From an uncultured bacterium (GTDB lineage: Bacteria > Auribacterota > Tritonobacteria > UBA1439): a DNA stretch of 60,600 nt. Within the stretch, counting starts at the first letter, position 1, and each line of letters begins with the position of its first letter. Under the pieces are notes generated by a model that did no database searches, was not told the DNA's origin, and worked only from the letters and a program-made list of their open reading frames with translations. The stretch is from the NCBI GenBank assembly GCA_964460305.1, contig CAYWRA010000003.1, positions 1 to 60,600 on the forward strand, given 5' to 3'. The translations under genes and the position numbers were made by a program. Shown here one piece after another: positions 23,131 through 46,545 of this stretch.

Positions 23131-23143
23131 TGGTCTTCGCCCG

Positions 23144-31345: not shown

Positions 31346-31348
31346 GTT

Positions 31349-33066: not shown

Positions 33067-34130
33067 CTCGCCCGCCCCCGTTGATCGTCTTCCCGTATTT
33101 CTCCGGCCATCTCGGCAAGGTCGATTCCGGTGGGGCACCACGTCATGCACCGGCCGCATCCGACGCATCCGAAACATCCATACTGCTCAACCCATGTGCA
33201 GAGTTTGTGGGTCACGAACTGCCTCAGGCGCGCCTCGCGCGAGGAACGGAAGTTCCCACCGTGCACCTTCGCGAAATTCAACGTCTGGCACGAATCCCAC
33301 TGCCGCTTCCTGACGGAGCGTTTGAGATCGAAAGACGTCTCATCGCCGATGTTATAGCAGAAACAGGTCGGGCACACCATCGTGCAATTGGCGCATCCCA
33401 GGCATTTCTGCTCGGCCGTCCGCCGATAGACGGCGTGATCGAGATTCCCCGCTAGGAGATCGACCAGGCCGTCCGTATCCAGGCGCTTCACGAACGAGCG
33501 GCCAGCCTCGGCCTCTCTTCCAACCTTCTCCGCCAACGCTTCCTTATCCGCTTTCCTCATGCGCCTGCCGCGCTCGACAAGCCCTCTACCGCGCTGAGAT
33601 CCGCACTCCACGAGGTAAATAGTGTCTCCGCCATCGGGATGCAGCCGCGTCAGCTCGACGTCATACCCCTCGCGTAATTTCAGAAAAGGCCCAGTCCCCA
33701 TCGATGCGCAAAAGCCCTTCTCGCACGCCCGGCCGCAATTCAACACAATCGTAACGGTGTCTCTCCGCATTTTTTCATAATGAGGATCGCGGTAATCGCC
33801 GAGCAAGACCTTATCCAACACGGAGATCGCATGCATGTCGCACGGATGGACCGCGAAAAGAAGGGGATGGGCCGCATCGCCGGCTGACGCAGGTACGCAT
33901 TGATTCGGATCCCGTCCCATCTCCAGAAGCGTCCGGCAGGAAGGATAGATGAACCGGCGGGGAGCGAGCATCGTGGAACGGTATTCCAGGAAGAGCCGGT
34001 CGGTGCTGTCAACCTTCTCAAAAACCGTCTGCCCCCGCTTGGTAAGCACGGGCCCGATGACGGTGAATTCCCCCATCAGATCCGCGCACCAGCTCATCAA
34101 CTCGCGCGCGGAGACAACGTACCCGGTCAT
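33063..34130 (-). CDS. hydB: Hydrogenase beta subunit (AsrA-like 4Fe-4S)
   Basis: VHPCD, CGRACEKGFC, CLGCANCTMVCPTCFC, CVGCGRCMTWCPTGI; GGAGGAG RBS. Confidence 0.92.
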   Translation of the reverse strand: MTGYVVSARELMSWCADLMGEFTVIGPVLTKRGQTVFEKVDSTDRLFLEYRSTMLAPRRFIYPSCRTLLEMGRDPNQCVPASAGDAAHPLLFAVHPCDMHAISVLDKVLLGDYRDPHYEKMRRDTVTIVLNCGRACEKGFCASMGTGPFLKLREGYDVELTRLHPDGGDTIYLVECGSQRGRGLVERGRRMRKADKEALAEKVGREAEAGRSFVKRLDTDGLVDLLAGNLDHAVYRRTAEQKCLGCANCTMVCPTCFCYNIGDETSFDLKRSVRKRQWDSCQTLNFAKVHGGNFRSSREARLRQFVTHKLCTWVEQYGCFGCVGCGRCMTWCPTGIDLAEMAGEIREDDQRGRAR

Positions 34131-34312
34131 TGCTCCTCCCCTTGTAACACACCCCAAAGTGCGAGACGGAGAAACGGAGAGCAGGAGAGCGGGCGACACA
34201 ATGACAATCGCCGGCTCTCCGATTCTCCCACTCGCCGTTTCGAATTGTGTTGGATACTATTCCCACGAAGAGATCCTGTTAGGACATGGTCAAAAAATCG
34301 ATCCACGCCGTG

Positions 34313-35371
34313 CTACAGCGTCGGGTGTCTCTCTCCCCAGCCGTACCATTTCCAGACGTCTTCCGTGAGATCGTCGTAAGCCCTCTTTGTATGTTCGTAC
34401 AGTCGCGCGTTTTCGAGCGCGACCACGCCAAAATCCCCAAGTATGTTGAGGAACTCGAGATCCTCGCGGTCATACACGTACCCGTAGCCGGTGTAGACCC
34501 TAAGCGTCCCCACCATTTTGCCCTTGAGCTTGAGGGGGATGCAAACCAACGACTTGATCCCCTCCCTCTTCAACTCGCGCGGATATTGGAGGCGCTTGTC
34601 TCCGGCCGTATCCTCGATCACCACGTTCTTACCCTCGAGGCATTCGCGCACCGACTTGTCGACGCTCACGGGGCCCTTGCGGGTGAATCGTCCGCTGAGG
34701 CCATGGGTGGCAGCCACCTCAAGACGCCCGGAGTCTCTATTGATCAACATAATGGAGGCGCCCTTCGCGGACATGTCTTTCGTCGCATGCTCGCATATCA
34801 TCGTGAGCACGCTTTCGATATCCAGTTGCGAGGCGATCTTCCTCCCTATTTCACTGAGCGTCTTCAGCCTCCCGTACCGCTGCGAATTCTTTATAACCAC
34901 GGCCCCCTGCGCCGCAAACGTCTCTATCAAGACGATTTCGTCGGGGCTGAACACGTGTTCTTTATTCGTATAGAGGCGGAGCACGCCAAGCATCCTCCCC
35001 CTGAACTTAAGAGGGACGCACAAGAGCGACGCAATCCCCTCGCGTTTTGCCTCGGCGCGGTATTGGATCCTCTTGTCCGTCGCCATGCTCCTGATCTGCA
35101 CTATCCGCCCTTTAAGCACAGCCCTGTCGAGAGGGCTTTTCTCTAGGGCTACCAGACCCTTTTGCAGATACTTCCGCGAGAGTCCACAGGAAGCCACGCT
35201 CTCGAGGATCTTCCCCGTTTTATCCAGGATCCTTATCGAGCTTGCCTTGGCCCTCAAGCATTTAGCCGCTTTATCAACCACTGAACGCAGCGCCTCGTGA
35301 TAATCAAGCGTAGAGGTCACGTTCTCGCAGGTCGAGCAGAGCGCGCCCAGGAATCTCCTTTGTGTCGCCAC
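34313..35371 (-). CDS. Stand-alone tandem GAF-GAF protein
   Basis: Two homologous GAF repeats (ASSIRILD..SCGLSRKY..SLLCVPLKFRGRMLGVLRLYT and ASIMLIN..THGLSGRF..SLVCIPLKLKGKMVGTLRVYT); no output domain; AGGAGGT RBS before the GTG. Confidence 0.88.
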   Translation of the reverse strand: MATQRRFLGALCSTCENVTSTLDYHEALRSVVDKAAKCLRAKASSIRILDKTGKILESVASCGLSRKYLQKGLVALEKSPLDRAVLKGRIVQIRSMATDKRIQYRAEAKREGIASLLCVPLKFRGRMLGVLRLYTNKEHVFSPDEIVLIETFAAQGAVVIKNSQRYGRLKTLSEIGRKIASQLDIESVLTMICEHATKDMSAKGASIMLINRDSGRLEVAATHGLSGRFTRKGPVSVDKSVRECLEGKNVVIEDTAGDKRLQYPRELKREGIKSLVCIPLKLKGKMVGTLRVYTGYGYVYDREDLEFLNILGDFGVVALENARLYEHTKRAYDDLTEDVWKWYGWGERHPTL

Positions 35372-35417
35372 GGCACACCTCCTGTAGATGCATGTCAAAC
35401 GGTCGCGCCGGCGGCCG

Positions 35418-36746
35418 TCACGTCCTCGGTCCGCTTCCGCCGGTACCATTCTCTATGATACCACAGACATCCCCCACCCAGGGACGGGCGGGAACGGCGG
35501 AATTTTCCAACCGGTTCGATCGCACAAAGAGAAAGGCATTATCCTGCGTGTGAGCCCCCGTGAATACGCCCCGCGTGGCAAGCTGATTCGCCGCCAGCCT
35601 GGCCTTCAGGTCAAAGCCGCGCTGAGGCAAAACAACCAGGTCGGGAGCACGGTCCGTGTAGGGGCCGAAGAACGTATCTTCGCGTCTGCACAGCCGCCGC
35701 ACCACGGGCCGGCCGCTTACCTTAAGCTCTCCGAAGGCCGCTTCGAGATCGTCCACGACCCGCGCCCTGTCCTTATCGCTAACGCAGCCCCTCGGGTACC
35801 TTCCCGCCGCGTTCACGTATATCCGCGCGGGGTCGAGGGCAAAGGCGCGCGATCCCTCCCCTACTCCTTCGAACGAGTCAACAGTCGGATTTACTATATG
35901 AAGGAACCCCTTTTCTTTCAAGAAATAATTCACGTTGACCTCGCTCTCGATCGTCCCAAACCCGTGATCGGAGAGCATCATAAAAAGATCGTCTTCCCCC
36001 AGCCCATCGTATATCTCACCGATGATTTCGTCTATCCTCTTAAAATGCCCACGGAACGCCTCGTGGTAGGGATGATCCGTTTTCCCGCATGCCTCAAAGA
36101 GGAAATGACTGAGGCGGTCCGTGCTGGTAAAGACAATGAAGAAAAGCCCGCACTCCTCCCGCTCCCAGAGGTAACGGAACGCCCTGATCCGAGCATCGAG
36201 CGTCTCCTCGCAATCACGGAGGAATGCGGCCATGTCGGTATGCCCCTTTGCCGCGTCCACGTCTATCCGGTAGCCGAGTTCCCGTAGTTTCGGAAGGAGG
36301 CTCTTGGGATAGACCGCCCGATCGATGTCAATCGCGACGAAACCGGAAATCATCACCCCATCGAGGGCGCGGGCGGGGTACGTTCCCGGGACGTTTAAAA
36401 TGACTGAGCGCCCAATAGGGAGCCTCTCCCAGAGGGGCGCGGCCTGGAGGTCGTTGAACGTGGGGAACGCGAAGCGGTACGTCCCCGGCGATAGATTCAT
36501 GAACCCATAGATGCCATGCTCGCCGGGATTCTTACCAGTGATCACCGTGCCCCATGCCACGCATGAGACGTCGGGTATGGACGATTCCATCCTCCTCATC
36601 TCGCCGGAGGAAAGGATCTTCCCCATGTTCGGCATGGTTCCGTCGGCCGCAAAGCGCACGATCAGCTCATGGGGAACACCGTCGAGACCGATGATAACGG
36701 CTCGGTTCTTATTTTGGGATTTGGGATTTGGGATTTGGGATTTCAC
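35418..36746 (-). CDS. AlkP-superfamily (NPP/phosphodiesterase-like) protein, no signal peptide
   Basis: IIGLDGVP, IPDVSCVAWGTVITGKNPGEHGIYGF, DRLSH, LSDHGF, TGAH. Confidence 0.88.
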   Translation of the reverse strand: MKSQIPNPKSQNKNRAVIIGLDGVPHELIVRFAADGTMPNMGKILSSGEMRRMESSIPDVSCVAWGTVITGKNPGEHGIYGFMNLSPGTYRFAFPTFNDLQAAPLWERLPIGRSVILNVPGTYPARALDGVMISGFVAIDIDRAVYPKSLLPKLRELGYRIDVDAAKGHTDMAAFLRDCEETLDARIRAFRYLWEREECGLFFIVFTSTDRLSHFLFEACGKTDHPYHEAFRGHFKRIDEIIGEIYDGLGEDDLFMMLSDHGFGTIESEVNVNYFLKEKGFLHIVNPTVDSFEGVGEGSRAFALDPARIYVNAAGRYPRGCVSDKDRARVVDDLEAAFGELKVSGRPVVRRLCRREDTFFGPYTDRAPDLVVLPQRGFDLKARLAANQLATRGVFTGAHTQDNAFLFVRSNRLENSAVPARPWVGDVCGIIENGTGGSGPRT

Positions 36747-36815
36747 AAGAGATTTGCCTGCCCGGCGGAGCCTTGGCGTAGTCGGGGGATTTGGGATTTC
36801 AATCAGCCCTACGCC

Positions 36816-38069
36816 TCACGCTGAATGTGTAATGATGACCCCCGCTACAATATCATTCCCGCGTTCCAGGACGAAACGGCCCATCTCGGGGATAAACGAA
36901 AACAGCTCGAACGCCAGCGGGCGCCCCATTTCGATGACGACTTCACCCACCTCGGTTTCATTAAGCGCGCGCGCACGTTCCTCAACCGTATCGAGCGTCG
37001 AGGAATCGATCCTCTTTCGTATCTCACTGATCGAGCATCGCCGCTCCTGCGTGTTCGCCCGTAATGTAAGCGTCTCGCCGAGCGTAAAAGGCCGGGGCGA
37101 CATCCAGAAGAGGCTCGCGGCGAGCCTCCGTTCCAGCCTCGGCGCGTTATCGGAAGAGCCCAGGACGTCCCCGCGCTTCACCGCGCCGTCCCCCGATAGC
37201 ACAATACCGATGCTCTCACCCGCCACAGCATCGCTCCGTTCTCTGCCGAACTCGAGAACCTGCGCGATCCTCGCCTCCCGCCGATCGGGGAAAATGGTGA
37301 TCTCGTCACCCTCGGCGAACCGGCCGGACTCTATCCTCCCCGCCACGATCTTCCGGCCCCCCCGCAGATACACGTCCTGGACGGGCATCCGGAGCGGCTT
37401 CTCATGTATATCCTTGTCCTTCTCCAGGGCATCGAGGGCCTCAAGGATCGTCGGGCCCGTATACCACGGCATCTTTTCCGAATGAGAGGCGAAGTTGTCG
37501 CCCCCGGTCCCGGAAACCGGAATGACGAAAGAGGGCGCGATGTCCAGCCGTTTTAGGAATGCGGCGATTTCGTCGCGGACCTCCTCAAATCTCTCCTTGC
37601 CGAACCCGACGAGGTCCATCTTGTTAAGGACCAGGATATTGCGCCTAAGGTTCAGCATGCCGAGAACGTAGGCATGGCGCCTCGTCTGCTCCATCACCCC
37701 TTCGTTCACGTCGATGACGAGGATCGACGTCTCCGCCTGGCTCGCCCCGGTGATCATGTTCTTCATAAACTCCTTGTGGCCAGGCGCGTCTATGATGACG
37801 TAGTCCCGCGTGGAAGTCCTGAAAAACGTCTGGGCGGTGTCGATGGTCATCCCCCGCTCACGCTCCTCCCGGAGGTGGTCCATCACGAATGCGAACTCAA
37901 CCGGCTTCCCCATCCCCTCGCAGGTTTGCCGGATGACCTCCATCCTGTCGGGAGGCAGCGAACCGGTATCGTACAGCAGCCGCCCGATGAGGGTGGACTT
38001 GCCGTGGTCCATATGCCCCACGATGACGATCTTCATGCTTTCACGCGCCGCCCTTTGATCTTCTTTCAA
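36816..38069 (-). CDS. cysN: Sulfate adenylyltransferase large (GTPase) subunit, no APS-kinase domain
   Basis: [32 protein letters not shown]; lies directly downstream of cysD. Confidence 0.9.
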
Positions 38070-38097
38070 CTTTACACCTTACACTTTCCGCCGTCTC

Positions 38098-38901
38098 TCA
38101 CATATACCCCAGCGCCCGCAGCTTCTGCATCGTGTACGCGTCTTCCTTGTCCTGCGCCCGCCCCGCCCGTTCTGAGATGTCCGTCGTCTCAATCTCATGG
38201 ATGATTTTGTCGATCGTGTCCGCATCCGAATCAACGGTGGAGCAACAGCACGCACAGCCGATGGAGCGGTAGCGCTTGCCGCCCTTCGCGAAGTAGAGGT
38301 CCACGATGGGGATGTTCTCCCGCTTGACATAGCGCCAGATGTCGAGCTCGGTCATGTGCAGGATCGGGTGGACCCTCAGGTGGTGGTGCCCCTCCGCGCT
38401 CGACTTGAACTGGTCCCAGAGCTCCGGCGGCTGGTCCTGATAGTTCCATTGGAACTGCTCGTCACGGGGGGAAAAATAACGCTCCTTGGCGCGTATCCCG
38501 TGCTCGTCCCTTCGGATCCCCAAGAGGATCGCATCAAGCTTCTCCCCGGCGATAAAATCCTTCAGTGCCTGCGTCTTCAGGGCATGGCAGCAATCGAGCT
38601 TGGATCCCTTGCCGGGGCCCATTCCCGCCGAGAGCGCCTTTTCGTTCCGCGCGATCTTCAGGTCGAGCCCCCACTCCCTCGCGTAGCGATCGCGGAACTC
38701 GTAAATCTCCTTGAATTTATATCCCGTATCTATGTGGATGATCGGAAATGGTATATCGCCAAAGAACGCCTTCCGTATCATCCAGAGCAGGGAGGTGGAA
38801 TCCTTCCCGATCGACCATAGCATCCCCATGCGGGGGAACCTGCTATAGGCCTCTCTGACGACGTATATCGTCCTGCTTTCCAGTTCGGTTAAATAATCCA
38901 T
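38098..38901 (-). CDS. cysD: Sulfate adenylyltransferase small subunit
   Basis: WSIGKDS, HIDTGYKF, GIRRDE, RAKERYFS, RVHP, RYRSIGC, ERAGRAQDKE. Confidence 0.93.
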   Translation of the reverse strand: MDYLTELESRTIYVVREAYSRFPRMGMLWSIGKDSTSLLWMIRKAFFGDIPFPIIHIDTGYKFKEIYEFRDRYAREWGLDLKIARNEKALSAGMGPGKGSKLDCCHALKTQALKDFIAGEKLDAILLGIRRDEHGIRAKERYFSPRDEQFQWNYQDQPPELWDQFKSSAEGHHHLRVHPILHMTELDIWRYVKRENIPIVDLYFAKGGKRYRSIGCACCCSTVDSDADTIDKIIHEIETTDISERAGRAQDKEDAYTMQKLRALGYM

Positions 38902-38965
38902 ATTATGAAATCCAAAATCCAAAACCCCAAATCCCAAAATTACAGTTATAACGTGCGGTGGAAAA

Positions 38966-39790
38966 TCAAAACTCCACCCCGATAAAACGTTTGAGAAGCA
39001 TACCAAAGATGATCGCCATCAGGAAGTAGGCAATGCTCCAGTGCATCCGTATGCCGAATAAATTGATCCTGGAGGACCGATACTCTACCGAGATGGAATA
39101 CGCCGGGGAATCAGCAGGGAGGGGTCGATCGCCAGGATTGACGAGACTGTTAAGGAACGACTTCTTCGCAGTCACGGGATACAGCCTCTGCACCCCGTTG
39201 TCGATGACGATTTCTTTCCGTATGTCGAGGCCTCCAACGACAAACTCAAGATACTGGTCCCCGGTCTCCTTGACCCCGATCCTCCAATCCAGTTCTCCCT
39301 TTCCCGGAATGCGCATCGGCGGCGTCTCCAACTCAAGGCCGGGCGAGGTAGTAAGCCGCACCCCTTCCGCCGTCAGTGCCATGCCGGGCAATGCGTCCAA
39401 CGACGCGATGAACCTGTCGCCGGGCATCGGGCTTGCGTGTCCATAGCGCAACTGCATCTGGATGCAAATGAGCGCGATCGGCGCCAGCACCACTGCAAGA
39501 GGAACGAGCGAGTAGCCGACGTAGCGGAGAGAGCATGCGCACACATTCCCCAGAGACTTGATCACCTGTGACGGATCGTCCCTGAAAAGATATATCCCGA
39601 GGAAATGGCCCTGGACCTGTCTCTTGAGCCGCGCGATCGCAATCTGATTCGATACCAACTTATACACCGCCAAGATGACGACCGCGGTGAGCAAAGCCAG
39701 GAATGCCACACCCCATACCGGCGCCGCTTTTTGGAATGGAGCAAGAACGACGTCAAAGACCCGTGTTAGGATGTTGAAGAATGTGTTCAT
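38966..39790 (-). CDS. Membrane protein with DUF106/EMC3/TMCO1-like layout and an inserted soluble beta domain
   Basis: TM1 (GVAFLALLTAVVILAVYKLVSNQ) then an amphipathic/coiled segment and TM2 (PLAVVLAP); C-terminal HWSIAYFLMAIIFGMLLKRFIGV resembles the DUF106 end. The family assignment is by pattern only. Confidence 0.55.
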   Translation of the reverse strand: MNTFFNILTRVFDVVLAPFQKAAPVWGVAFLALLTAVVILAVYKLVSNQIAIARLKRQVQGHFLGIYLFRDDPSQVIKSLGNVCACSLRYVGYSLVPLAVVLAPIALICIQMQLRYGHASPMPGDRFIASLDALPGMALTAEGVRLTTSPGLELETPPMRIPGKGELDWRIGVKETGDQYLEFVVGGLDIRKEIVIDNGVQRLYPVTAKKSFLNSLVNPGDRPLPADSPAYSISVEYRSSRINLFGIRMHWSIAYFLMAIIFGMLLKRFIGVEF

Positions 39791-39865
39791 ATAAAATCCC
39801 AATCACATGATTCGTACTTCGTCGTTCGTACTTCGTTATTCGATGTACGAAGTGCGATGTACGCT

Positions 39866-40051
39866 TCACGACAAGTACCCCAGCCCCCGAAGTTTCTCCT
39901 TCACCTTTTCGGCATCGTCGCCCGAGCCGATGCCTGCGGCGGCTTTTTCGAGAACGTGCACAATGAATTCCTCCGCACTGGAATAGCCCGCCGCCGCGGC
40001 GCACTTTCCCAGCTTCTCGTACAAATCATTATCTATCCCGATTTTAGCCAT
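39866..40051 (-). CDS. Small ribbon-helix-helix-like protein with a C-terminal LRGLGY tail
   Basis: Strong RBS (GAAGGGAGAGGG); beta-alpha-alpha pattern KIGIDNDLYEKL..GYSSAEEFIVHVLE; ends EKVKEKLRGLGYLS. Confidence 0.75.
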   Translation of the reverse strand: MAKIGIDNDLYEKLGKCAAAAGYSSAEEFIVHVLEKAAAGIGSGDDAEKVKEKLRGLGYLS

Positions 40052-40078
40052 TGCATCCCTCTCCCTTCGTATTTCTCA

Positions 40079-40230
40079 GAAGGTGTGAAAAAATCGAGAC
40101 TGTGTCATTGCGAGGAAGCCCCGTTGTATGGGATGACGCGGCAATCTCTTTGCGACCGCTTAAAAACGAGATTGCCGCGCTCCGCTCGCAATGACAGTTT
40201 GTAGATGCTTTCAATTATTTCACGCCCTCT
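40079..40230. mobile_element. MITE-like palindromic element
   Basis: Imperfect terminal inverted repeats gaaggtgtgaaaaaat / attattttcacgccctc enclose gtcattgcgagg..gcggcaatct..agattgccgc..ctcgcaatgac. Degenerate relatives lie at about 310-372 and 16668-16690. Confidence 0.55.
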
Positions 40231-40236
40231 CTCTTC

Positions 40237-42237
40237 TCACATATACGGCAATGCCTTGATATTGTCACTGGATCCGGGCGGGGCTTGAAATACGTCATTC
40301 CCCACCATATCTTTCGGTTTCTCAATCCCGAACTCGGCCAGTATCGTCGGCGCGAGGTCGTACAGGTGCGGTTGCGCCAACGCTATCTTGCTGCTGGCGA
40401 ACAGGACGCCTGGCACCACCCCCGTCGCCCCGCAGTGGTCGCCGCTCCACTTCTCTTTGCTCACCGCGATGAGCTCCGCCATGACGTCGCCAAGCGCGCT
40501 CTCCCACGACGTCCGGTATCCCCAGTCATAGCCCACGATGATATCGGGCGCCGCGCCGACGTATTCCCCCGAATAAACATCTTTCGCAATGTGCGCGCAC
40601 TTCACCACCCTCGCGCCATTCGCTGGATCGGTCACCTTTTCGAGCTTTTCCTTGATCTCTTTCTGGAGCGCCTCAGCCTCGGCGCCGGAAGGGACGATGC
40701 CGTTTCTCTCCCTGCCGCGGAGGTTGAGATAAAGAGAGTTCAGCCCGAGCGCATATGCCCTCGTCCTCCCCCAGTCGACGTTCTTAAAGAGGGAGCCGGT
40801 TGCCGCGCCGTCCCTGAGAGTAAGGTAGCCATTCTGCATCAGCCACGTGTTGAGGCTGAAAGATTTATAATAGGGACCGAAGCCGTGGTCGGACATGACT
40901 ATGAGCGTCGTGCGATCATCGAATCTCGCAAACACCTTAGCGACCGTCTTATCCATCTCCTCGTAAATATTTTCGATGACGTCCCCGAGCCGCTCTCTCG
41001 CGGCGGCGTCATACATCTGGTGGTTCCTATCCCGGAGGTGCCAGAAGATGTGCGTGCCCAAATCGGTGCTCGAATAGTAATAGAAGAAGAAACCCCGCGT
41101 GAACTTCGAGAAGAGGTAGTCGAAGAGGCGGTGGTTCTCTTCGAGGACCATATGGAACTGCGTGTAGAACTCGTCCGTGGTAAAGGTGTCGTTCGTCAGG
41201 GTCTTGGTGTTCTCCGGCATGCCCTGCGTGTAGAAATAACCGACATTGTCGGCGATCTCCTTGGCATACCCTTTTGGCGTGTCGATCGGCAGGGCCGGAT
41301 GTTTCGGGTCTATGTTGATCGGCGTCACGTAGAGCCTGAAATGCGGAGCGACCTCCTTTAGATAAAACCGGCAGATCCCTTTCACGGAGGGGACCAGCGG
41401 CAGCGTCGGGAAGTCCAGGACGATCCAGTCGCTCCATTCCCCCTGAGAAAGGATGATGCGCTGCCCGGGAAGGTCGATCCTCGCCATGCGCTGCAGCGGA
41501 TCAAGGCAGGCGGTGAAATCGACCGTGATCTTAGGAGATCCCTTCTTGTAGCTGTTGCGCGGGCCGGCGATCGAGGACCGGACAACGTCGCCCACACAAC
41601 TAACGCGGGTGAATTCGGCCCCCGACGGATCCTTGGGGATATCGGAGGCGCACGTCGTGAAGTATTGGTAGATTCCGTAGGTCCCCATCAGGTCGGGAGT
41701 TCCCATCCCGGATACGCTCTTCGCCCCGCACTCCACGGGAGGGAAGTTCGACGGTATCTTGAATATGACCGCTGGGATTCCCTTCTCGGACAAATACTCC
41801 CAGAACGCCTTCCCCTGTCTCTTCAATACCACGGACCCGCTCGATAAGGGTATTACATATTCGCCGACCTTAAGCGTGCGCATGGGAGGGATCGTCTCGG
41901 AGGTCGAGAGATAGGGAAGGTAGGTGGAGGGATCCCTGTGGACGAAATCAAAGATCGCATGCCCCCCGGGGTTTTTCCCGGTGATGAAGTTGGACCAGGC
42001 GACGGGGCTCTGGGGCGGTATGCTCGACCAGAGGTCTTTGAAGCCCCCCATCTCGGCCAATTTCCTCAAGTTCGGGAGTTTGCCTTTTGCGAACATCTCC
42101 CGCACGATCCTCGGGTCCATTCCGTCGAATCCGAGGACGATCACTTTCTTATCCCCGGCCCACTCCGCACGACGGCCGCAGTTCAGCGACAGGAGACAGG
42201 AAAGGAGAACCGTCCCCAAAATTAACATTCTTTTCAT
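40237..42237 (-). CDS. AlkP-superfamily (NPP-like) protein with an N-terminal export or lipoprotein-like signal
   Basis: MKRMLILGTVLLSCLLSLNC; VLGFDGMD, PPQSPVAWSNFITGKNPGGH, DLGTH, MSDHGF, SGDH. Confidence 0.88.
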   Translation of the reverse strand: MKRMLILGTVLLSCLLSLNCGRRAEWAGDKKVIVLGFDGMDPRIVREMFAKGKLPNLRKLAEMGGFKDLWSSIPPQSPVAWSNFITGKNPGGHAIFDFVHRDPSTYLPYLSTSETIPPMRTLKVGEYVIPLSSGSVVLKRQGKAFWEYLSEKGIPAVIFKIPSNFPPVECGAKSVSGMGTPDLMGTYGIYQYFTTCASDIPKDPSGAEFTRVSCVGDVVRSSIAGPRNSYKKGSPKITVDFTACLDPLQRMARIDLPGQRIILSQGEWSDWIVLDFPTLPLVPSVKGICRFYLKEVAPHFRLYVTPINIDPKHPALPIDTPKGYAKEIADNVGYFYTQGMPENTKTLTNDTFTTDEFYTQFHMVLEENHRLFDYLFSKFTRGFFFYYYSSTDLGTHIFWHLRDRNHQMYDAAARERLGDVIENIYEEMDKTVAKVFARFDDRTTLIVMSDHGFGPYYKSFSLNTWLMQNGYLTLRDGAATGSLFKNVDWGRTRAYALGLNSLYLNLRGRERNGIVPSGAEAEALQKEIKEKLEKVTDPANGARVVKCAHIAKDVYSGEYVGAAPDIIVGYDWGYRTSWESALGDVMAELIAVSKEKWSGDHCGATGVVPGVLFASSKIALAQPHLYDLAPTILAEFGIEKPKDMVGNDVFQAPPGSSDNIKALPYM

Positions 42238-42611
42238 GATTGCACTTTTTACTTCCACAAAGAGTAAAAGTTAACCTGGCCTACTCACTAACCACCGATG
42301 CCATACTCCAACTTTCAACGTTCTTATCCACGTCCCAACGGGATCCCTTCGGGACGTGGATTCCAACAGTTCTCTCGATTTCTCTTTCCCTCTTTTACTC
42401 TTTGTAAAACAACTGCCTTGTTTTCTCTGCGTACTCTGCGGTGAGCTATTAACCTGATCTATTCATCAACTTTGATCGGCCGATAAATACTTACTGTAGC
42501 GTAAATAGTTATGCAAAACTGCCAACATTCCGCACCAGACTAGTCGGTGCGGGGTTAACCCCGTAGGGTGGATTATTCATCTCACATTTCAAACGAGATG
42601 AATAATCCGGA

Positions 42612-44711
42612 TTAAAGCTCCACCCCCAACACCTTCCCGTCCATGTACACCGGCGGCGCGATGCCGAAGAGGTCGAGGACCGTTGGAGCGATGTCCTGGA
42701 TGTGGGGCGCGCTAGAGCCGATCCTCCGGTTGCAAAATAACACCCCGGGAACGAACCGGTGGTCGATGCAGTGGTCCGCGCTCCATGCCCTCTCATTGTC
42801 CTCGATTACTTCGGCGCCCACCCGCCCGGTGACCGACTCCCACGATGCCCGATAACCCGGCCGGTAGCCGACGATAAGATCGGGTGCGTTTTCGGCGTAC
42901 GGCCCGCGATAGATCTCGCGCGTGTCGTAGACCGCGGCGATCGGGGTGTCGCCTGACCGCTCGTCCTTTAGCCCCTGAATCTTTCCGGCAATCTCCCTTT
43001 TTATCGCCTCGGCATCGCGTGGATCGACGAGCCCTTCGGCCTCCCTCCCCTTGAGGTTCAGGTAGATGCCCGATAGCCCGAGGGCGTATGCCTTCGTCTT
43101 CCGCCAATCGACGCCCTTAAACCATTCACCGCACGTCGTGGCATTGTCTTTCATGCTAAGGTATCCGTTTTTATGGAGCCAGGCGTTGACGTTCACACCC
43201 CTGCGGAACGTCTTGAACCCGTGATCGGAGAGGACGACCAGAACGTCTCCGGGCGAGAGCTGTTTCCTTACGCGGCCGACAAGCTCGTCCATTCTTGCAT
43301 AGAGATCCGCAATTATTGACGGGCGGGAGGGCTGGCCTTCCGGAAGCGCCGGATGGCCCGTGTCGAGATAGCGCCAGAATTCGTGCTGGATGGCGTCGGT
43401 GGCGTCGAAGACGCAGCAGAGAACACCCCGATTCACTTGCGCCATTGAACGGAAAAATATCTCTTCGAGCTCGGCGTGCATACGGTACGTCTGCTGGAGG
43501 AACGCGTCATCGGTTAAAACCTTCTCGTTGAGGGCCCAGGTGTCTTGCGGTAAGCCCAGCGTTGCGAAAGGCCCCGCAATTTTACTCAGATACACGGAGT
43601 ATATCAGCGGATGTGAAACGGGTAGCGCCGGTTTCTCGGGGTCGATATGGATGGGGGAAAGATAAAGCTCAAGGGACGGCGTCGTACGTTTCAGGAAAAA
43701 GTGGGCGATCCCGGTGATCGTCGTAGCAAGACCCGCCTTGAATTTCAGGCGGATCCAATCCGTCATCTCACCCTCGCGAAGCGTCCACTTGGCACGCCCG
43801 ATCGTCAACGTCGCCGTCTTCCCTTCCCCGTCCACCATGATCCTCAGGGGAATTCGCAAATCCCTATCCGGCTTGAACGGGTCCCGCGGGCCGGAGATAA
43901 ACGCGTCATAAACAGGGCCATGCCCATCGAGGCGCACAAGAAAGCCTCCCGTATATGACGTCTCGTGCGACGCCGCATCGGTGTAGAAGGCGAACGTCCC
44001 CTGTGAGCCCTTAAGATCCGGCGTGCACAGCCCAGAGAGGAGCAAACCCTTAAATCTCTCCGGAGGAAACGTGATCGGGACCTTCAGTACGATGCTAGGG
44101 ACCCCATGTTCACCTAGGATCTTCCAAAATGGAACGCTCTTCCGCAACATCTTGATCCGGGGCTTCCCTATGGGGAGTTGCCACCTGCCTAAACCCACCG
44201 ACCTGGCCGTCTCCGCGATCTCCGCCGAGGAGAGGGAAGGCATGTAGGTCTTTGCATTACGGCTTAGGAAATCAAAGATGTTATGCTTCCCAGGATTGAC
44301 GCCCGTCATGAACGACGACCATGCGACCGGCGATATCGGGGGATTGGTCGTGCGTAGGGGCGAGAAACAACCCTCCCGGCGCATGGCCGAGAGGTTCGGA
44401 AGCTTCCCCTCGTTCATATAAGAAACTGCGAGCTCTGGATCCAGACCGTCAAGACCGACGATGATCAGCCGCCCGACGCGCGCGGCGGAGAGCGCTTTTT
44501 TCGACCGGAGCTTCCTCACGCACAATCTCACCGGAAGAGTCAGCAGCACGACGATCGCCAGGAGAATCCCGCCGAGGATAAAGATGAACGAGCTCAGGAA
44601 AGCGAATCCCGCGCCCGGCCCGATATACCCCAATGCCGACGAGGGGAGGAACAGCGCTCCGACTGCGCACGCTTCCACGCAATATGTAAAATATTTACAG
44701 GGTCTTGTCAT
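42612..44711 (-). CDS. AlkP-superfamily (NPP-like) protein with an N-terminal YIGPGAG membrane anchor
   Basis: Signal-like segment, YIGPGAGFAFL TM helix, RKLRSKK; then VGLDGLD, PPISPVAWSSFMTGVNPGKH, DAIQH, LSDHGF and SADH. The 914-aa ORF call over-extends through repeats. Confidence 0.85.
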   Translation of the reverse strand: MTRPCKYFTYCVEACAVGALFLPSSALGYIGPGAGFAFLSSFIFILGGILLAIVVLLTLPVRLCVRKLRSKKALSAARVGRLIIVGLDGLDPELAVSYMNEGKLPNLSAMRREGCFSPLRTTNPPISPVAWSSFMTGVNPGKHNIFDFLSRNAKTYMPSLSSAEIAETARSVGLGRWQLPIGKPRIKMLRKSVPFWKILGEHGVPSIVLKVPITFPPERFKGLLLSGLCTPDLKGSQGTFAFYTDAASHETSYTGGFLVRLDGHGPVYDAFISGPRDPFKPDRDLRIPLRIMVDGEGKTATLTIGRAKWTLREGEMTDWIRLKFKAGLATTITGIAHFFLKRTTPSLELYLSPIHIDPEKPALPVSHPLIYSVYLSKIAGPFATLGLPQDTWALNEKVLTDDAFLQQTYRMHAELEEIFFRSMAQVNRGVLCCVFDATDAIQHEFWRYLDTGHPALPEGQPSRPSIIADLYARMDELVGRVRKQLSPGDVLVVLSDHGFKTFRRGVNVNAWLHKNGYLSMKDNATTCGEWFKGVDWRKTKAYALGLSGIYLNLKGREAEGLVDPRDAEAIKREIAGKIQGLKDERSGDTPIAAVYDTREIYRGPYAENAPDLIVGYRPGYRASWESVTGRVGAEVIEDNERAWSADHCIDHRFVPGVLFCNRRIGSSAPHIQDIAPTVLDLFGIAPPVYMDGKVLGVEL

Positions 44712-44986
44712 AAACCTGATCCATTTACCAACCGCCGCAGGAAAATCCCCCGCCTGCCAACCGGCCTCGTCCCAAAGGGATCCCTTGGGGCGGGCAAGCA
44801 AACCCTTTGCAAAATCCCAACTCCCAAACCCCAAATCCCAAAGTATGAGACGGAGAAACGGGGAAGGGGCGACATAAAGAAATCGCCGGCGATCCCCCGA
44901 AGGGGCCCCTTTGGGGCGTGGATTCCAGCGGTTTTCTTGGTCTCTCTTTTCCTCTTTTACTCTTTGTAAAACAACTGCTCCGCGGT

Positions 44987-46369
44987 TCACATGATCCCGT
45001 ACTTCTTCAACTTGTACCACAAGTTCCGCTCGCTGATCCCCAGGAGTTTCGCGGCGCGCGCCTTGACGCCATCGGCTTCCCTCAATGCCTTTCCGATCAT
45101 CTCTCTCTCGAGCGACGACACCGCCCCATCCAGATCGCCACGGGCCCCAGCCGCAAGGCTGGGGACACCCGAACTCCTCTCCGGCGCGCCATAGACGATC
45201 TCCGGCGGCAAGTCGTCCATCTCGATCCGGCCCGTGGCGTTCAGCGCCACGGCCCGCTCGATCACGTTTTCCATCTCGCGCACGTTCCCAGGCCAACCGT
45301 ACAGGCTGAGCGCCCTCAATGCACCCTCCGAGGGCGGGGCGACCTCCTTCCCCCACTCGCTGGAGTATTTTCCGGTGAAATACTCGGCCAGCGGCTGGAT
45401 ATCCTCAACCCGCTCCCGTAAGGGGGGGACGACGATTTTCACCACGTTCAATCGGTAGTAAAGATCCTCGCGAAAATTTTTCTCCTGGATCATATCTTTC
45501 AGGTCTTTGTTCGTAGCGGCAATAACCCGCACGTTCACGCCGATCGTTTCGGCGCTCCCCACCTTTTCGAATTCTTTCTCCTGCAGCACGCGGAGAATCT
45601 TCGCTTGAAGCGCCAACTCCATGTCGCCGATTTCGTCAAAGAAGATACTGCCGCCGTCGGCCTTTTCGAATCTCCCCGTCCGCTCGACCTCGGCCCCGGT
45701 GAATGCGCCTTTCACGTGGCCGAATAGCTCGCTCTCGAGAAGCGTCGCGGGGATCGCCGCGCAGTTCACCGCGACAAACAGCTTATCCCTGCGGACGCTC
45801 TTATCGTGTAGGGAGCGCGCGAGAAGCTCTTTGCCGGTGCCCGTCTCCCCGTAGAACAACACCGAGGCGTCCGTGCGGGCAAGCCTGTCGATAAGGGAAT
45901 GGATCTCCCTCATCTTTTTGCTGCACCCGACGATCTGCTGCCCCTCGTGCTGCTGCTTCAGCTCCTCCTTGAGATAAACGTTCTCTCTCCTCACCTTCTC
46001 AAACTCGAAGACCTTGGAGATCACCATCTCGATGCTGTCGACGTCAAAGGGCTTGAGAATGTAGTCACTCGCCCCCTGCTTCATCGCCTCCACGGCGCTC
46101 TTGATCGTCCCATACGCGGTCATGATCACCACGGGCATCTTCAACACCCTCCGCCTAATTTCCATGAGGAGATCGATCCCGCTCATCCCCGTGGGCATTT
46201 TGAGGTCGGTGAGCACCAGATCCACGCGTTTCCCGTCAAGGATCCTGATCGCCTCCTCGGCGTTGTCCGCCTGGAGCGATTCATAACCGAGCTCCTCAAG
46301 CATCATCTCCGCGAGCCGGAGCATGTTGCGCTCGTCGTCGACAACGAGTATGCGTTTTTTCATAAGCAA
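44987..46369 (-). CDS. Sigma54-dependent response regulator (NtrC/AtoC family)
   Basis: Receiver (ILVVDDE, TDLKMP), GETGTGKE, ESELFGHVKGAFTGA, FFDEIG, WPGNVREMEN, Fis HTH. Confidence 0.95.
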   Translation of the reverse strand: MLMKKRILVVDDERNMLRLAEMMLEELGYESLQADNAEEAIRILDGKRVDLVLTDLKMPTGMSGIDLLMEIRRRVLKMPVVIMTAYGTIKSAVEAMKQGASDYILKPFDVDSIEMVISKVFEFEKVRRENVYLKEELKQQHEGQQIVGCSKKMREIHSLIDRLARTDASVLFYGETGTGKELLARSLHDKSVRRDKLFVAVNCAAIPATLLESELFGHVKGAFTGAEVERTGRFEKADGGSIFFDEIGDMELALQAKILRVLQEKEFEKVGSAETIGVNVRVIAATNKDLKDMIQEKNFREDLYYRLNVVKIVVPPLRERVEDIQPLAEYFTGKYSSEWGKEVAPPSEGALRALSLYGWPGNVREMENVIERAVALNATGRIEMDDLPPEIVYGAPERSSGVPSLAAGARGDLDGAVSSLEREMIGKALREADGVKARAAKLLGISERNLWYKLKKYGIM

Positions 46370-46391
46370 AATCCCTTATTTACTACGAACT

Positions 46392-46533
<142 letters not shown>

Positions 46534-46545
46534 TCAGCATATCGC

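Follow-up and report, generated by a model that had tools for sequence, protein, structure and literature searches.

A predicted envelope-associated AlkP-superfamily cassette joined to ATP sulfurylase genes in an uncultured Auribacterota bacterium

What might an ATP sulfurylase be doing when its genes lie among those of three AlkP-superfamily enzymes? The question is raised by a minus-strand run of seven co-oriented genes (35418-44711) in a 60,600-nucleotide stretch of DNA from an uncultured Auribacterota bacterium, hereafter the window, which encodes AlkP1, AlkP2, a mini-protein, a membrane protein, CysD, CysN and AlkP3 (Table 1). A preliminary description of this DNA had reported seven such genes, with three AlkP-fold paralogues and cysDN, and no APS kinase, APS/PAPS reductase or sulfotransferase in the window; both statements held. 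Pfam scans of about 45 ORFs and phmmer searches of all window ORFs, seeded with CysC, sulfotransferase, CysQ and CysD, recovered no CysC/APS kinase, CysH/PAPS-APS reductase or sulfotransferase. CysC and sulfotransferases may be encoded elsewhere in the genome. One description of Auribacterota presents them as anaerobic fermenters and does not list assimilatory sulfate reduction among their capacities (PMC9324843).

Table 1 Features of the cassette and its surroundings (positions in the window)
Feature	Position	Strand	Details
HAMP-PAS histidine kinase	46546-48783	-	upstream, next to the response regulator; Pfam and NCBIfam matches
Sigma-54-dependent response regulator	44987-46369	-	directly upstream of the cassette; Pfam and NCBIfam matches
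Intergenic repeat, second copy (GTTTTACAAAGAGTAAAAGAGG core)	44951-44972		upstream of AlkP1
AlkP1	42612-44711	-	699 aa; PF01663
Dispersed intergenic repeat, core GTTTTACAAAGAGTAAAAGAGG	42389-42410	-	in the 353-bp gap upstream of AlkP2
AlkP2	40237-42237/42258	-	666-673 aa; PF01663; probable ATG at 42237
Mini-protein	39866-40051	-	61 aa; C-terminal end LRGLGYLS
Membrane protein	38966-39790/39802	-	274-278 aa; 274 aa from the ATG at 39790
CysD, short type	38098-38901	-	267 aa; PP-loop SIGKDS; end KLRALGYM
CysN, GTPase subunit of ATP sulfurylase	36816-38069	-	417 aa; without APS-kinase domain
AlkP3	35418-36746	-	442 aa; PF01663
Protein with two GAF domains	34313-35449	-	directly downstream of the cassette; Pfam

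All three AlkPs matched PF01663 above its gathering score (1e-28 to 1e-35), and members of the family carry the JGI label 'predicted AlkP superfamily phosphohydrolase/phosphomutase'. The serine motif said to be common to the paralogues, P-x-x-S-x-x-A-W-x4-T-G-x-N-P-G-x-H, was confirmed by reading each sequence (PPQSPVAWSNFITGKNPGGH, PPISPVAWSSFMTGVNPGKH and PDVSCVAWGTVITGKNPGEH). AlkP1 and AlkP2 share 36% identity from end to end (E 4e-150); AlkP3 aligns with their N- and C-terminal parts and lacks about 230 intervening residues, a large insertion. An AlphaFold2 model of AlkP2 (mean pLDDT 90.2) has an NPP-clade fold into which this beta-rich segment is inserted, and its best Foldseek matches were ENPP1, Xanthomonas NPP, PhnA and PafA. 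Ser84 of AlkP2 aligned with the NPP nucleophile Thr90, and D45, S84, D399/H403, D457/H458 and H608 were invariant in 63 AlkP2-family sequences. By alignment and model, the active site is a standard two-metal site of the NPP phosphoryl-transfer type. Two-metal serine sites in the AlkP superfamily are typical of phosphoryl transfer and, according to published work on the promiscuity of the superfamily, poor at sulfuryl transfer, so direct sulfuryl transfer would be unexpected. The resemblance to NPPs (Xanthomonas NPP, ENPP1/3/5/7), PhnA and PafA extends to PF01663 membership, the two-metal ligands, the TGxxPxxHGI motif, the nucleophile position and the structure. However, the sequences are only about 10-12% identical, and sequence searches of the PDB gave nothing better than E 3e-4; the nucleophile is Ser rather than Thr, PVAW replaces the FPNH that follows it, AlkP1 and AlkP2 carry the extra insertion, and the cassette enzymes come in fixed paralogue sets with a membrane partner.

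Judging from N-terminal sequences of 68-80 orthologues, the paralogues appear to be divided between the two sides of the inner membrane, in agreement with the membrane-spanning picture proposed at the outset. In 68 aligned orthologues, AlkP1 begins with a signal-peptide-like segment; a nearly invariant (A)YIGPGAGFAFLSSF motif comes next, and after it a single TM helix and a linker rich in K/R. Because the signal-like segment and TM anchor precede this linker, the positive-inside rule predicts a catalytic domain facing the cytoplasm. AlkP2 is predicted to be periplasmic because it carries an export signal, lipoprotein-type (LLSLNC) in the window and twin-arginine (RREFLK) in the Aminicenantes-type orthologues. 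AlkP3 has no signal peptide or TM segment and is therefore read as cytoplasmic. LtaS, EptA, OpgB/MdoB and BcsG are envelope AlkP-fold enzymes that form a covalent Ser/Thr intermediate, and PF00884 proteins broadly of the LtaS/EptA/OpgB/BcsG type are frequent neighbours of the cassette. AlkP1-3 differ from them in lacking the N-terminal five-TM domain and in having one paralogue predicted to face the cytoplasm and one predicted to be soluble. AlkP1-3 also belong to PF01663 and not to PF00884, for which the match (E 0.0098) fell under the cut-off.

Comparison across genomes separated a widespread core from a local addition. AlkP1, AlkP2, the mini-protein and the membrane protein formed a conserved unit kept in essentially all 80 species-representative loci, a few short or atypical loci showing it only in part. 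Hosts include Acidobacteriota, Aminicenantes, Dadabacteria, Desulfobacterota and other groups, and relatives of AlkP2 are encoded in at least 588 stretches of the genome collection. By contrast, cysDN lies inside the cassette only in the window's Auribacterota clade; 1 of the 80 species loci has it there. The seven-gene set is real in the window, but as an arrangement it is limited to one clade, and what is conserved is a core of four or five genes without cysDN. We found no paper describing an AlkP/membrane-protein/mini-protein system; the cassette is widespread, unstudied and undescribed, and the window holds one lineage's version of it.

The label 'DUF106-like' given to the membrane protein proved right: its profile matched the archaeal DUF106 protein MJ0480 (5c8j) over residues 4-118 (E 6.4e-8). 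By sequence, it is a bacterial relative of archaeal DUF106/Ylp1 in the Oxa1 superfamily, and YidC-like. The match covers TM1, the coiled coil and TM2, and the three-TM architecture of the model (AlphaFold2, mean pLDDT 85.6) also recalls Ylp1 and the Oxa1 superfamily (YidC, EMC3, GET1, TMCO1). From the N terminus the layout is TM1, a helical hairpin in the cytosol, TM2, a predicted periplasmic beta-sandwich (about 130 residues) and TM3; the sandwich between TM2 and TM3 sets the protein apart from Ylp1 and the Oxa1 superfamily. In the literature DUF106 is archaeal and eukaryotic (PMC5868721), whereas the cassette protein is bacterial and scores below the Pfam gathering threshold, PF01956 matching sub-threshold in 4 of 23 members. 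It is also encoded in an enzyme operon, not as a general insertase. Matches fell into 2173 clusters at 50% identity (E <= 1e-10), with a uniform length near 274 aa.

The mini-protein has a ribbon-helix-helix (RHH)-like N-terminal half and, across 76 distinct aligned orthologues, an invariant C-terminal tail, (K/R)L(K/R/Q)GLGY(I/L)(S/E). The strand-helix-helix pattern and short conserved tail are shared with RHH proteins that bind partners through a C-terminal tail, such as type II antitoxins and NikR. Unlike in those proteins, all RHH matches were below threshold (RHH_1 and FitA-like RHH, each in 7 of 23 members; NikR RHH domain, E 0.23), there is no toxin gene, and the tail is a CysD-like LGY motif. 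A homologue is also encoded in an archaeal locus (L107).

CysD and CysN are recognizable as the PP-loop and EF-1-alpha-like GTPase subunits of ATP sulfurylase, as in CysDN/NodPQ, and both exceed NCBIfam cut-offs. CysD passed NF003587 (335 bits against a cut-off of 195) and matched 1ZUN chain A (6e-57), and it did not reach the cut-offs of TIGR02039 and NF009214, the models for classical CysD. It belongs to a short type that is 69-79% identical across phyla. CysN passed TIGR02034 (347.8 against 336.1 bits), its G motifs, including NKMD, could be read straight from the sequence, and it aligns with NF004035, the model for bifunctional CysNC, over model positions 18-430 of 632 only. In CysDN/NodPQ sulfate activation, CysC is usually fused or adjacent to CysN, and in other organisms cysC often sits directly downstream of cysN. 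The window differs in its short CysD, in having neither a kinase domain nor a nearby cysC, and in placing a PF01663 gene after cysN, where cysC often sits. The CysD tail differs as well, KLR[AS]LGYM replacing the classical KKRQGYF; it forms the C-terminal end of 118 of the 120 best CysD homologues. The same LGY tail is carried by all mini-proteins, by Auribacterota AlkP2 (in the window as the degenerate IKALPYM) and by cytoplasmic PF00884 and PF01663 proteins on either side of cysDN in L106. No other gene among the 1227 called in the loci has it.

Comparative genomics supports, from several directions, the proposed functional tie between the AlkPs and ATP sulfurylase. The order membrane protein-cysD-cysN-AlkP3 is kept in the window and in six further contigs of the clade (L004, L008, L090-L093), even where membrane-protein identity drops to about 50%. 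Orthologues of AlkP3 follow cysN in all six and also in L104 (478 bits) and L108 (455 bits), outside the clade. We sampled five outside loci with short CysD, from a bacterium, an Armatimonadota member, a complete 4.1-Mb genome, an archaeon and a Planctomycetota member, and PF01663 genes adjoined short-type cysDN in 5/5 (L104-L108). In L104, cysD-cysN-AlkP3 lies within a Wza/Wzz/Wzx/Wzy polysaccharide cluster; L105, L106, L107 (the archaeon) and L108 likewise have cysDN next to a PF01663 gene. Adjacency of the two is consistent when approached from short CysD but not when approached from the cassette, where it is confined to the one species locus given above. These distant bacterial and archaeal pairings point to an undescribed use of activated sulfate.

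In neither L004 nor L104-L108 was a sulfotransferase Pfam family recorded within 8-10 kb, and no APS kinase was recorded in the window or in those loci. PAPS-dependent sulfation clusters (PMC11641403, PMC11766843) resemble them in placing sulfate-activation genes inside envelope or polysaccharide loci, as in L104, but the loci described here have an AlkP-fold enzyme instead of a recorded sulfotransferase or APS kinase. Among the 80 cassettes, 15 lie within 3 kb of cysDN, cysC, a sulfotransferase gene or a cysQ-like gene. At least six arrangements occur, and in several of them these genes run in line with those of the cassette. About 65 cassettes have no sulfur-related gene within 10 kb. In Acidobacteriota, cassettes adjoin conventional PAPS genes (CysC, sulfotransferase, CysQ), which argues against the AlkPs as sole sulfotransferases. 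Loci with AlkP3 (about 25 of 80) and those with adjoining cysC, sulfotransferase or cysQ (14 of 80) do not overlap, a pattern that is confounded by phylogeny and would fit two alternative sulfation modules.

The reading we favour, at a probability of about 40%, is an envelope-associated NPP-clade AlkP system coupled to sulfate activation, in which AlkP3 uses APS and/or PPi and AlkP1 and AlkP2 act on a glycoconjugate. AlkP1 would be tethered to the inner membrane by its procoat-like N-terminal anchor and AlkP2 exported to the periplasm, with the mini-protein as a cytoplasmic RHH-like part of the core. In the window's clade, the short-type CysDN without kinase domain would produce APS and PPi, and soluble AlkP3, encoded directly after cysN, would most likely consume one or both, either passing the sulfuryl group on or carrying out phosphoryl transfer on APS. 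At the two membrane faces, AlkP1 and AlkP2 would go on to work on the anionic group so formed, or on a related one, of a membrane-bound or exported glycoconjugate. The Oxa1-like protein would insert or hold the AlkP1 N-tail anchor and might scramble a lipid-linked intermediate, and the LGY tail could dock CysD, the mini-protein and neighbouring AlkP-superfamily enzymes to a common partner. Against a shared docking role, classical CysD (1ZUN) also ends in GY and a hydrophobic residue, and the tail may serve CysD-CysN contacts only. Two further points count against the favoured reading: attack on the phosphorus of APS by an AlkP site would merely hydrolyse it, and the cysDN-adjacent AlkP of L105 has an additional TM helix, given which its domain would be predicted to be periplasmic.

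The NPP-type fold and active site would also suit phosphodiester or phospho-headgroup machinery, with the AlkPs cutting or transferring phosphate-linked groups on both faces of the inner membrane and sulfate genes lying nearby since the same polymer is sulfated by ordinary PAPS sulfotransferases. The GPI ethanolamine-phosphate transferases are PF01663 members; in 36 loci the cassette has PF00884 neighbours bearing a Thr nucleophile (PLTTPSH) and TPR domains; genes for PAP2, UDP-glucose dehydrogenase, PMT_2 and UbiA are found close to cassette relatives; and the conventional sulfation genes beside Acidobacteriota cassettes point the same way. Candidate groups are lipid head groups, polyprenyl-phosphate-linked glycans and teichoic-like polymers, and the PAPS-dependent sulfotransferases would be encoded in the operon or elsewhere. 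We nevertheless consider this somewhat unlikely, since it leaves unexplained both the tail shared with CysD and the finding that, in five distant lineages where no sulfotransferase family is recorded nearby, the gene for a soluble cytoplasmic AlkP comes after a kinase-less cysDN. A role in nucleotide housekeeping, with cytoplasmic paralogues hydrolysing APS, PAPS or PAP (a CysQ- or NPP-like clean-up) or PPi to pull or limit the CysDN reaction without transfer to an acceptor, appears improbable. The nearest structural relatives are nucleotide pyrophosphatases, mammalian NPPs degrade PAPS, and AlkP3 directly follows cysN; yet APS hydrolysis would waste ATP and GTP, some loci have CysQ-like genes alongside the cassette, and an exported paralogue, a membrane anchor, a DUF106-like partner and a mini-protein, conserved in essentially all 80 loci, would have no explanation.

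More doubtful still is a phosphate-sparing regulon, in which the enzymes scavenge phosphate from phosphodiesters both inside and outside the cell and sulfation provides anionic groups free of phosphate, the two being co-regulated without a common substrate. AlkP and NPP are classic phosphate-starvation enzymes, a Ppx/GppA gene occurs in the window and near L006, and a two-component system lies upstream. However, the locus showed neither PhoB/PhoR nor Pst nor a Pho box, and the fixed partnership with the mini-protein and Oxa1-like protein, together with the Wzx/Wzy cluster setting, points to a dedicated biosynthetic machine. Chance adjacency, with cysDN inserted into the cassette in one clade and the remaining associations coincidental, would account for the single species locus with internal cysDN and for the many cassettes without a sulfur-related neighbour. 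It is already very unlikely: adjacency to a PF01663 gene would be expected by chance in well under 1% of loci (a rough estimate from the few PF01663 genes per genome) and was found in every outside locus sampled, the associations recur across many different arrangements, and CysD and cassette proteins have a tail motif in common.

Around the cassette, the response regulator and histidine kinase (44987-48783) are candidate regulators. No convincing sigma-54 promoter was found; the pair is also present upstream in L004 and L090 and absent there in the more distant relatives examined. The two-GAF protein, with synteny kept in L091 only, is treated as context, its membership of the system being uncertain. 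The repeat with the GTTTTACAAAGAGTAAAAGAGG core occurs in six copies across the window, against zero expected.

The seven genes at 35418–44711 share one orientation, as the preliminary description had it; they follow one another on the minus strand with intergenic gaps of 28–353 bp, the two largest being those 5′ of AlkP1 and AlkP2 (see table). The serine motif that it ascribed to the three AlkP-fold paralogues, AlkP1, AlkP2 and AlkP3, was found in each of them. Pfam scans of the approximately 45 window ORFs recorded no APS kinase, APS/PAPS reductase or sulfotransferase in the 60.6 kb, and phmmer searches seeded with CysC, sulfotransferase, CysQ and CysD returned the same absence, upholding what had been noticed there. 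The nearest relatives come from Candidatus Auribacterota (Aureabacteria, Ca. Tritonobacter; PVC group). Below, L-numbers denote related loci from other genomes or contigs, the cassette denotes AlkP1, AlkP2, the mini-protein and the membrane protein, and the clade is the Auribacterota group of the window (with L004, L008 and L090–L093).

Genes of the seven-gene set in the window, and gene arrangement at five short-CysD loci sampled outside its clade
Feature	Positions	Strand	Description
AlkP1	42612-44711	-	699 aa, first in transcription order
AlkP2	40237-42237 (ORF reaches GTG at 42258)	-	666 aa, second
Mini-protein	39866-40051	-	61 aa, third
Membrane protein	38966-39790	-	274 aa, fourth
CysD	38098-38901	-	267 aa, fifth
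CysN	36816-38069	-	417 aa, sixth
AlkP3	35418-36746	-	442 aa, seventh
L104 (GCA_964457585.1)	4114-15919		Wza-Wzz-(P-loop protein)-cysD-cysN-AlkP3-Wzx-NTP_transf_5-Wzy, polysaccharide cluster
L105 (Armatimonadota)			cysD-cysN, 67-aa TM protein, AlkP1-like enzyme
L106 (complete 4.1-Mb genome)			cytoplasmic PF00884 protein, cysD-cysN, two cytoplasmic PF01663 proteins
L107 (archaeon)			PF01663, mini-protein homologue, PF01663, cysD-cysN
L108 (Planctomycetota)			cysD-cysN-AlkP3

All three paralogues scored far above the PF01663 gathering cut-off of 23 bits (AlkP3, 123.9; AlkP1, 106; AlkP2, 99.2). AlkP1 and AlkP2 are 36% identical from end to end, and AlkP3 consists of the N- and C-terminal catalytic parts that it has in common with them, minus the roughly 230 residues between. 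Across 63 sequences of the AlkP2 family the two-metal set D45, S84, D399/H403, D457/H458 and H608 is invariant, and the corresponding motifs (D ... nucleophile ... DxxxH ... DH ... H) can also be read in AlkP1 and AlkP3. Ser84 of AlkP2, in the motif PPQSPVAW, aligns with Thr90, the nucleophile of Xanthomonas NPP; the NPP hallmark of a Thr nucleophile in a PxxTFPNH motif is not found in AlkP2, which has Ser as a variant nucleophile. Ser also serves as the nucleophile of E. coli alkaline phosphatase. The nearest structures to the AlphaFold2 model of AlkP2 (mean pLDDT 90.2) were ENPP1, Xanthomonas NPP, PhnA (phosphonoacetate hydrolase) and PafA, at about 11% identity, Foldseek E values of 1e-9 to 1e-7 and target-normalised TM-scores of up to 0.64. 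Judging from this model, the core of AlkP2 is NPP-like in three dimensions, and it carries a large, mostly beta insertion at approximately residues 106–345. No solved homologue of AlkP2 scored better than E = 3e-4, and AlkP3 had no close one. The more than 8000 homologues of AlkP2 are all labelled merely ‘alkaline phosphatase family protein’ or ‘predicted AlkP superfamily phosphohydrolase/phosphomutase’; a search of the plasmid collection gave no AlkP2 homologue. Elsewhere in the window, a fourth, distant PF01663 protein of 574 aa with an N-terminal hydrophobic segment (3664–5388, minus strand) adjoins the gene for a 913-aa AsmA-family protein (5480–8221, minus strand); phmmer detected no paralogy between it and AlkP1–3.

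Enzymes of the LtaS/EptA/OpgB type combine PF00884 with a five-TM N-terminal module, and AlkP1–3 have neither: PF00884 reached E = 0.0098 and 15.7 bits against a cut-off of 25, and the window AlkP proteins contain zero to two hydrophobic segments. We therefore rejected membership of the LtaS/EptA type, since the Pfam family differs and the five-TM module is absent. Formylglycine sulfatases were likewise rejected, as no (C/S)xPxR motif was found; AlkP1 and AlkP2 read S-P-V-A-W at this position, AlkP3 reads S-C-V-A-W and the PF00884 neighbours discussed below read T-x-P-S-H. A defence system was also discarded: PADLOC had no hit to any AlkP protein, to the mini-protein or to the membrane protein, its only matches being generic PAPS-reductase-fold ones of CysD to BrxP and SspD. 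The window set differs, too, from PAPS-dependent sulfation clusters (PF00685/PF13469) in that no sulfotransferase domain was found in it.

The N termini suggest different locations for the paralogues. AlkP3 is read as cytoplasmic because it has no signal. AlkP2 is read as exported, since it starts with either a lipoprotein signal (Auribacterota, Terriglobia and Dadabacteria) or, at Aminicenantes-type loci, the twin-arginine signal RREFLK. AlkP1 begins with a signal-peptide-like segment ending in AxA, followed by the motif A-Y-(I/A/V)-G-P-G-A-G-F-A-(F/V)-L-S-S-F, near-invariant across 68 loci, then a single TM helix and a linker rich in K and R; for this layout, the positive-inside rule predicts that the catalytic domain faces the cytoplasm. 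The layout resembles that of M13 procoat, a classic YidC substrate, and the AYxGPGAGFA-type motif may be a recognition element for a YidC-like partner. At L105, a related AYIDPGSG stands at the extreme N terminus of an AlkP enzyme (9985–12069), and the adjacent 67-aa TM micro-protein (9756–9959) also starts with AYID.

A profile of 23 homologues of the membrane protein matched the archaeal DUF106 protein MJ0480/Ylp1 (PDB 5c8j) at E = 6.4e-8, residues 4–118 aligning with 5–123 across TM1, the coiled coil and TM2. PF01956 matched 4 of the 23 members, all below threshold (best E = 6.9e-4), and did not match the window protein. The AlphaFold2 model (pLDDT 85.6; helices 24–46, 49–68, 73–116 and 251–270) has three TM helices, the first two separated by a helical hairpin, and the K/R-rich cytosolic hairpin is visible directly in the sequence. 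Between TM2 and TM3 the model places a beta-sandwich (residues 120–250) that would be periplasmic. Foldseek found weak Ig-like matches to the beta-sandwich (best E = 4e-3) and left the TM part unmatched, which speaks neither for nor against the DUF106 assignment. The family is large, comprising 2173 clusters at 50% identity (E ≤ 1e-10), nearly all of about 274 aa. DUF106 has been described as an archaeal and eukaryotic family that forms a branch of the Oxa1 superfamily (PMC5868721), and scramblase activity is reported for YidC (PMC11997395). One homologue, at L103 (10001–10825), stands alone with no AlkP gene alongside, its neighbours being GT2-PRK-PMT_2-UbiA-DUF3276-TatC-TatA. A PRK-PMT_2-UbiA-TatCA set adjoins the full cassette at L006 (13374–18664), and the window encodes UbiA and TatC at 15751–17717; such a neighbourhood is suggestive of a link to polyprenyl-phosphate glycans in this phylum.

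CysD scored 335 bits with NF003587 (cut-off 195), contains the PP-loop SIGKDS and stayed under the cut-offs of the classical models (TIGR02039, 254.7 versus 396.6; NF009214, 249.7 versus 413). It belongs to a short, 267-aa type that is 69–79% identical across Planctomycetota, Armatimonadota, Firestonebacteria, Nitrospira, Thermodesulfobacteriota and archaea. CysN passed TIGR02034 (347.8 bits; cut-off 336.1) with its G motifs present, including NKMD, and matched positions 18–430 of 632, the first two thirds, of the bifunctional CysNC (CysN/APS-kinase) model. No APS kinase (CysC) fused to or near CysN, as in CysNC/NodQ, was found in the window. The AlkP3 gene directly follows cysN, a slot that cysC often holds in other organisms.

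A one-genome-per-species scan yielded at least 588 stretches encoding an AlkP2 relative, of which the best 80 loci were kept. These represent Terriglobia and other Acidobacteriota, Aminicenantes, Dadabacteria and Desulfobacterota, together with MAGs that are labelled as Spirochaetia and Fibrobacteraceae. The four cassette genes occur together in essentially all 80, a few short or atypical loci being partial, in the order AlkP1-AlkP2-mini-protein-membrane protein or AlkP2-mini-protein-membrane protein-AlkP1; AlkP3 stands at the front in about 25 loci, of the Aminicenantes type. This establishes that the multi-component AlkP cassette is real and widespread. Its commonest extra neighbours (36 loci) are PF00884 ‘sulfatase-family’ proteins, which have TPR domains and a Thr nucleophile (PLTTPSH) and not the formylglycine motif; the remaining neighbours reflect lineage-specific synteny. 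cysDN lies inside the cassette at a single species locus of the 80 (L008, Ca. Tritonobacter) and additionally in the window, at L004 and on the metagenome contigs L090–L093, whose membrane proteins are 51–71% identical to that of the window. Somewhat more distant loci (L006, L088, L089 and L094/L095) carry the cassette without cysDN, and this cysDN-free cassette is the conserved unit.

The adjacency of cysDN, from which the preliminary description argued, was rejected as a trait of the whole cassette family on the strength of that 1/80. All five short-CysD loci that we sampled outside the clade (L104–L108) have PF01663 genes beside cysDN. The wider neighbourhood of the cassette also spoke for a sulfate connection: in 15 of the 80 loci, cysDN or a gene for an APS kinase, a PF00685/PF13469 sulfotransferase or a close CysQ-like protein lies no more than 3 kb away, in at least six different arrangements. 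At L007, cysC is directly 5′ of AlkP1, with a sulfotransferase gene and cysQ divergent from cysC; a sulfotransferase gene is directly 3′ of AlkP1 at L028, L046, L050 and L052 and directly 3′ of the membrane protein gene at L062; and cysQ-like genes lie 65–228 bp downstream at L033 and L049. Seven Acidobacteriota-type loci have a sulfotransferase beside the cassette. No locus among the 80 combines AlkP3 with cysC, a sulfotransferase or cysQ next to the cassette, a pattern that fits two alternative modules but is confounded by phylogeny. No sulfotransferase or APS-kinase family was recorded within 8–10 kb at L104–L108 or L004, and no sulfotransferase family in the 16.8 kb seen of L104. Auribacterota have been described as sulfide-zone fermenters, with assimilatory sulfate reduction absent from their listed capacities (PMC9324843); on the evidence of the window, such a profile would fit a non-assimilatory role for cysDN.

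A shared C terminus connects several of these proteins. In 76 distinct orthologues, the mini-protein has an RHH-like N-terminal half and an invariant C terminus, (K/R)L(K/R/Q)GLGY(I/L)(S/E); among 23 members, RHH_1 matched 7 (best E = 0.0012), FitA-like RHH 7 and DUF7557 12, and the NikR RHH domain reached E = 0.23, all below cut-offs. An LGY-type tail ends every mini-protein, including the archaeal one (HRLKALGYI). CysD ends in KLR[AS]LGYM in 118 of its 120 best homologues, and classical CysD (1ZUN) ends in KKRQGYF, aligned at the same position. AlkP2 of Auribacterota has the tails IKALPYM (window), MKALGYI (L008) and LKALDYI (L006), and the cysDN pair of L106 is flanked by the cytoplasmic PF00884 protein ending in ELRSLGYL and a 531-aa PF01663 protein ending in SLRALGYLDE. 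Multi-TM PF00884 and PF01663 proteins at L010, L013 and L022 bear LGY-type tails as well. A C terminus of GY followed by a hydrophobic residue occurs 14 times in the 1227 genes called in the loci, solely in the LGY-tail families. Candidate partners of the tail are CysN, the PF01663 domain and the membrane protein. A RaxX-like role for the mini-protein tail, as a site of tyrosine sulfation, was set aside because no acidic residues flank the Tyr and because the tail also occurs on enzymes and on CysD.

These associations are strong guilt-by-association evidence that the AlkP enzymes work with sulfate activation. That the system is coupled to it in the following manner we put at roughly 40%. Most economically, the cytoplasmic paralogue (AlkP3 here) would consume a CysDN product, the membrane-tethered and exported paralogues would handle, at both faces of the inner membrane, an anionic group borne by an envelope or exopolysaccharide component, and the DUF106-like protein could insert or hold the N-tail anchor of AlkP1, or be a scramblase. 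APS ordinarily passes through APS kinase to sulfotransferases or PAPS reductase, or else to APS reductase. A more exacting version of the sulfate-activation reading, in which the PF01663 enzymes partner a kinase-less CysDN and use its APS in a sulfation route that dispenses with APS kinase and classical sulfotransferases, is unlikely. It could take the form of direct sulfuryl transfer from APS via a Ser-O-sulfo enzyme, or of PPi-driven 3′-phosphorylation of APS by a phospho-Ser enzyme, which would use both CysD products. The active site has the look of one made for phosphoryl transfer, and the direct transfer of a sulfuryl group from APS would therefore be unusual; a route through phospho-Ser, such as PPi-dependent 3′-phosphorylation of APS, would, by pure inference, fit the AlkP fold. 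Plain APS hydrolysis by an AlkP enzyme would be futile. In the more exacting version, the CysD-like LGY tail would dock the enzymes to the activation complex, and the anchored and periplasmic paralogues, with a DUF106/YidC-like scramblase or insertase, would pass the group across the inner membrane to acceptors in the envelope or exopolysaccharide.

The main rival, which we consider somewhat unlikely, is that the AlkP enzymes handle phosphate-linked envelope groups, sulfation being a separate decoration of the same product; the phosphoryl-transfer character of the site speaks for this rival, and the tail common to CysD and some AlkP enzymes speaks against it. Nucleotide housekeeping by these NPP-like enzymes is less probable still, and a phosphate-sparing regulon seems very unlikely. 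Chance adjacency, for which the single cysDN-bearing cassette among the species loci speaks and against which the five sampled short-CysD loci speak, we regard as most improbable.

Individually, the parts are new subfamilies of known superfamilies (NPP-clade AlkP, short-type CysDN and Oxa1/DUF106), to which the mini-protein possibly adds a new subfamily of the RHH superfamily. As a system, they have no match among the known systems that we identified, and we rate them as new in kind, with an inferred function; literature searches on the system, on cysDN with nucleotide pyrophosphatase and on AlkP-superfamily sulfuryl transfer from APS found nothing relevant. A highly conserved kinase-less short CysDN, present in several bacterial phyla and an archaeon, adjoins AlkP-superfamily enzymes in every sampled locus, and some of these enzymes bear CysD's own C-terminal tail. 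Should they consume APS, sulfur metabolism, and the modification of envelopes or exopolysaccharides, would have a branch that has been overlooked. Acidobacteriota, Aminicenantes and PVC candidate phyla are among the lineages with the cassette. Separately, the cassette yields a large bacterial DUF106/Ylp1-related family (more than 2000 clusters at 50% identity), for which the procoat-like anchor at the N terminus of AlkP1 is an obvious candidate client; questions about a specialised insertase or scramblase thereby become directly testable.

Immediately upstream, in the window and in its closest relatives, L004 and L090, are genes for a sigma-54-type response regulator and a HAMP-PAS histidine kinase. 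The search for a sigma-54 promoter 5′ of AlkP1 gave no convincing site, the best candidate being TTGCAA-N5-TTGC without GG, and sigma-54 matches in the window were fewer than in shuffled sequence. Counts of sigma-70 promoters and terminators in the region equalled chance expectation, so operon structure could not be defined. An Rfam scan returned no riboswitch, two tRNAs being the sole matches. An intergenic repeat that is dispersed over the window and has a conserved core of some 50 nt (GTTTTACAAAGAGTAAAAGAGG) occurs in six copies against none expected (8586–8607, 19487–19508, 28657–28678, 42389–42410, 44951–44972 and 59040–59061), with one copy each in the gaps 5′ of AlkP2 and AlkP1; a promoter, a leader and a small mobile element are possibilities. 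Short tandem arrays (2–4.6 copies) of the heptamer AAATCCC / TTGGGAT occupy at least 11 short spacers beside gene starts (at 1136, 3673, 17996, 21848, 24152, 31126, 32195, 36713, 38908, 44812 and 51853), among them those 5′ of AlkP1 and CysD. At AlkP3, an array extends over the first called codons. A leader or spacer element specific to the lineage is one possibility.

Other parts of the window also stood out. An unusual carbamoyl-transfer cluster at 20901–26936 groups three paralogous OTCase-fold carbamoyltransferase genes (20901–21833, 24655–25758 and 25812–26936) with an amino-acid-kinase-family gene (23144–24115), a gene for a PLP-dependent enzyme (21892–23130) and an unassigned 173-aa ORF. 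Within 11976–15735, a GT2 glycosyltransferase fused to an LPG_synthase_TM domain (12956–14644) adjoins a stand-alone LPG_synthase_TM protein (11976–12959) and an NAD-dependent epimerase/dehydratase. The stretch at 55891–58000, which encodes a DUF4062 + HATPase_c_4 protein (55891–57360), has a GC content of 46% versus about 57% for the window and may be acquired DNA. Directly downstream of a GAF gene, four genes at 29854–34199 resemble those of a cytoplasmic NiFe sulfhydrogenase (a Fer4_22 protein, an NAD-binding/DHODB Fe-S protein, and the small and large subunits), a set that fits the published description of Auribacterota.
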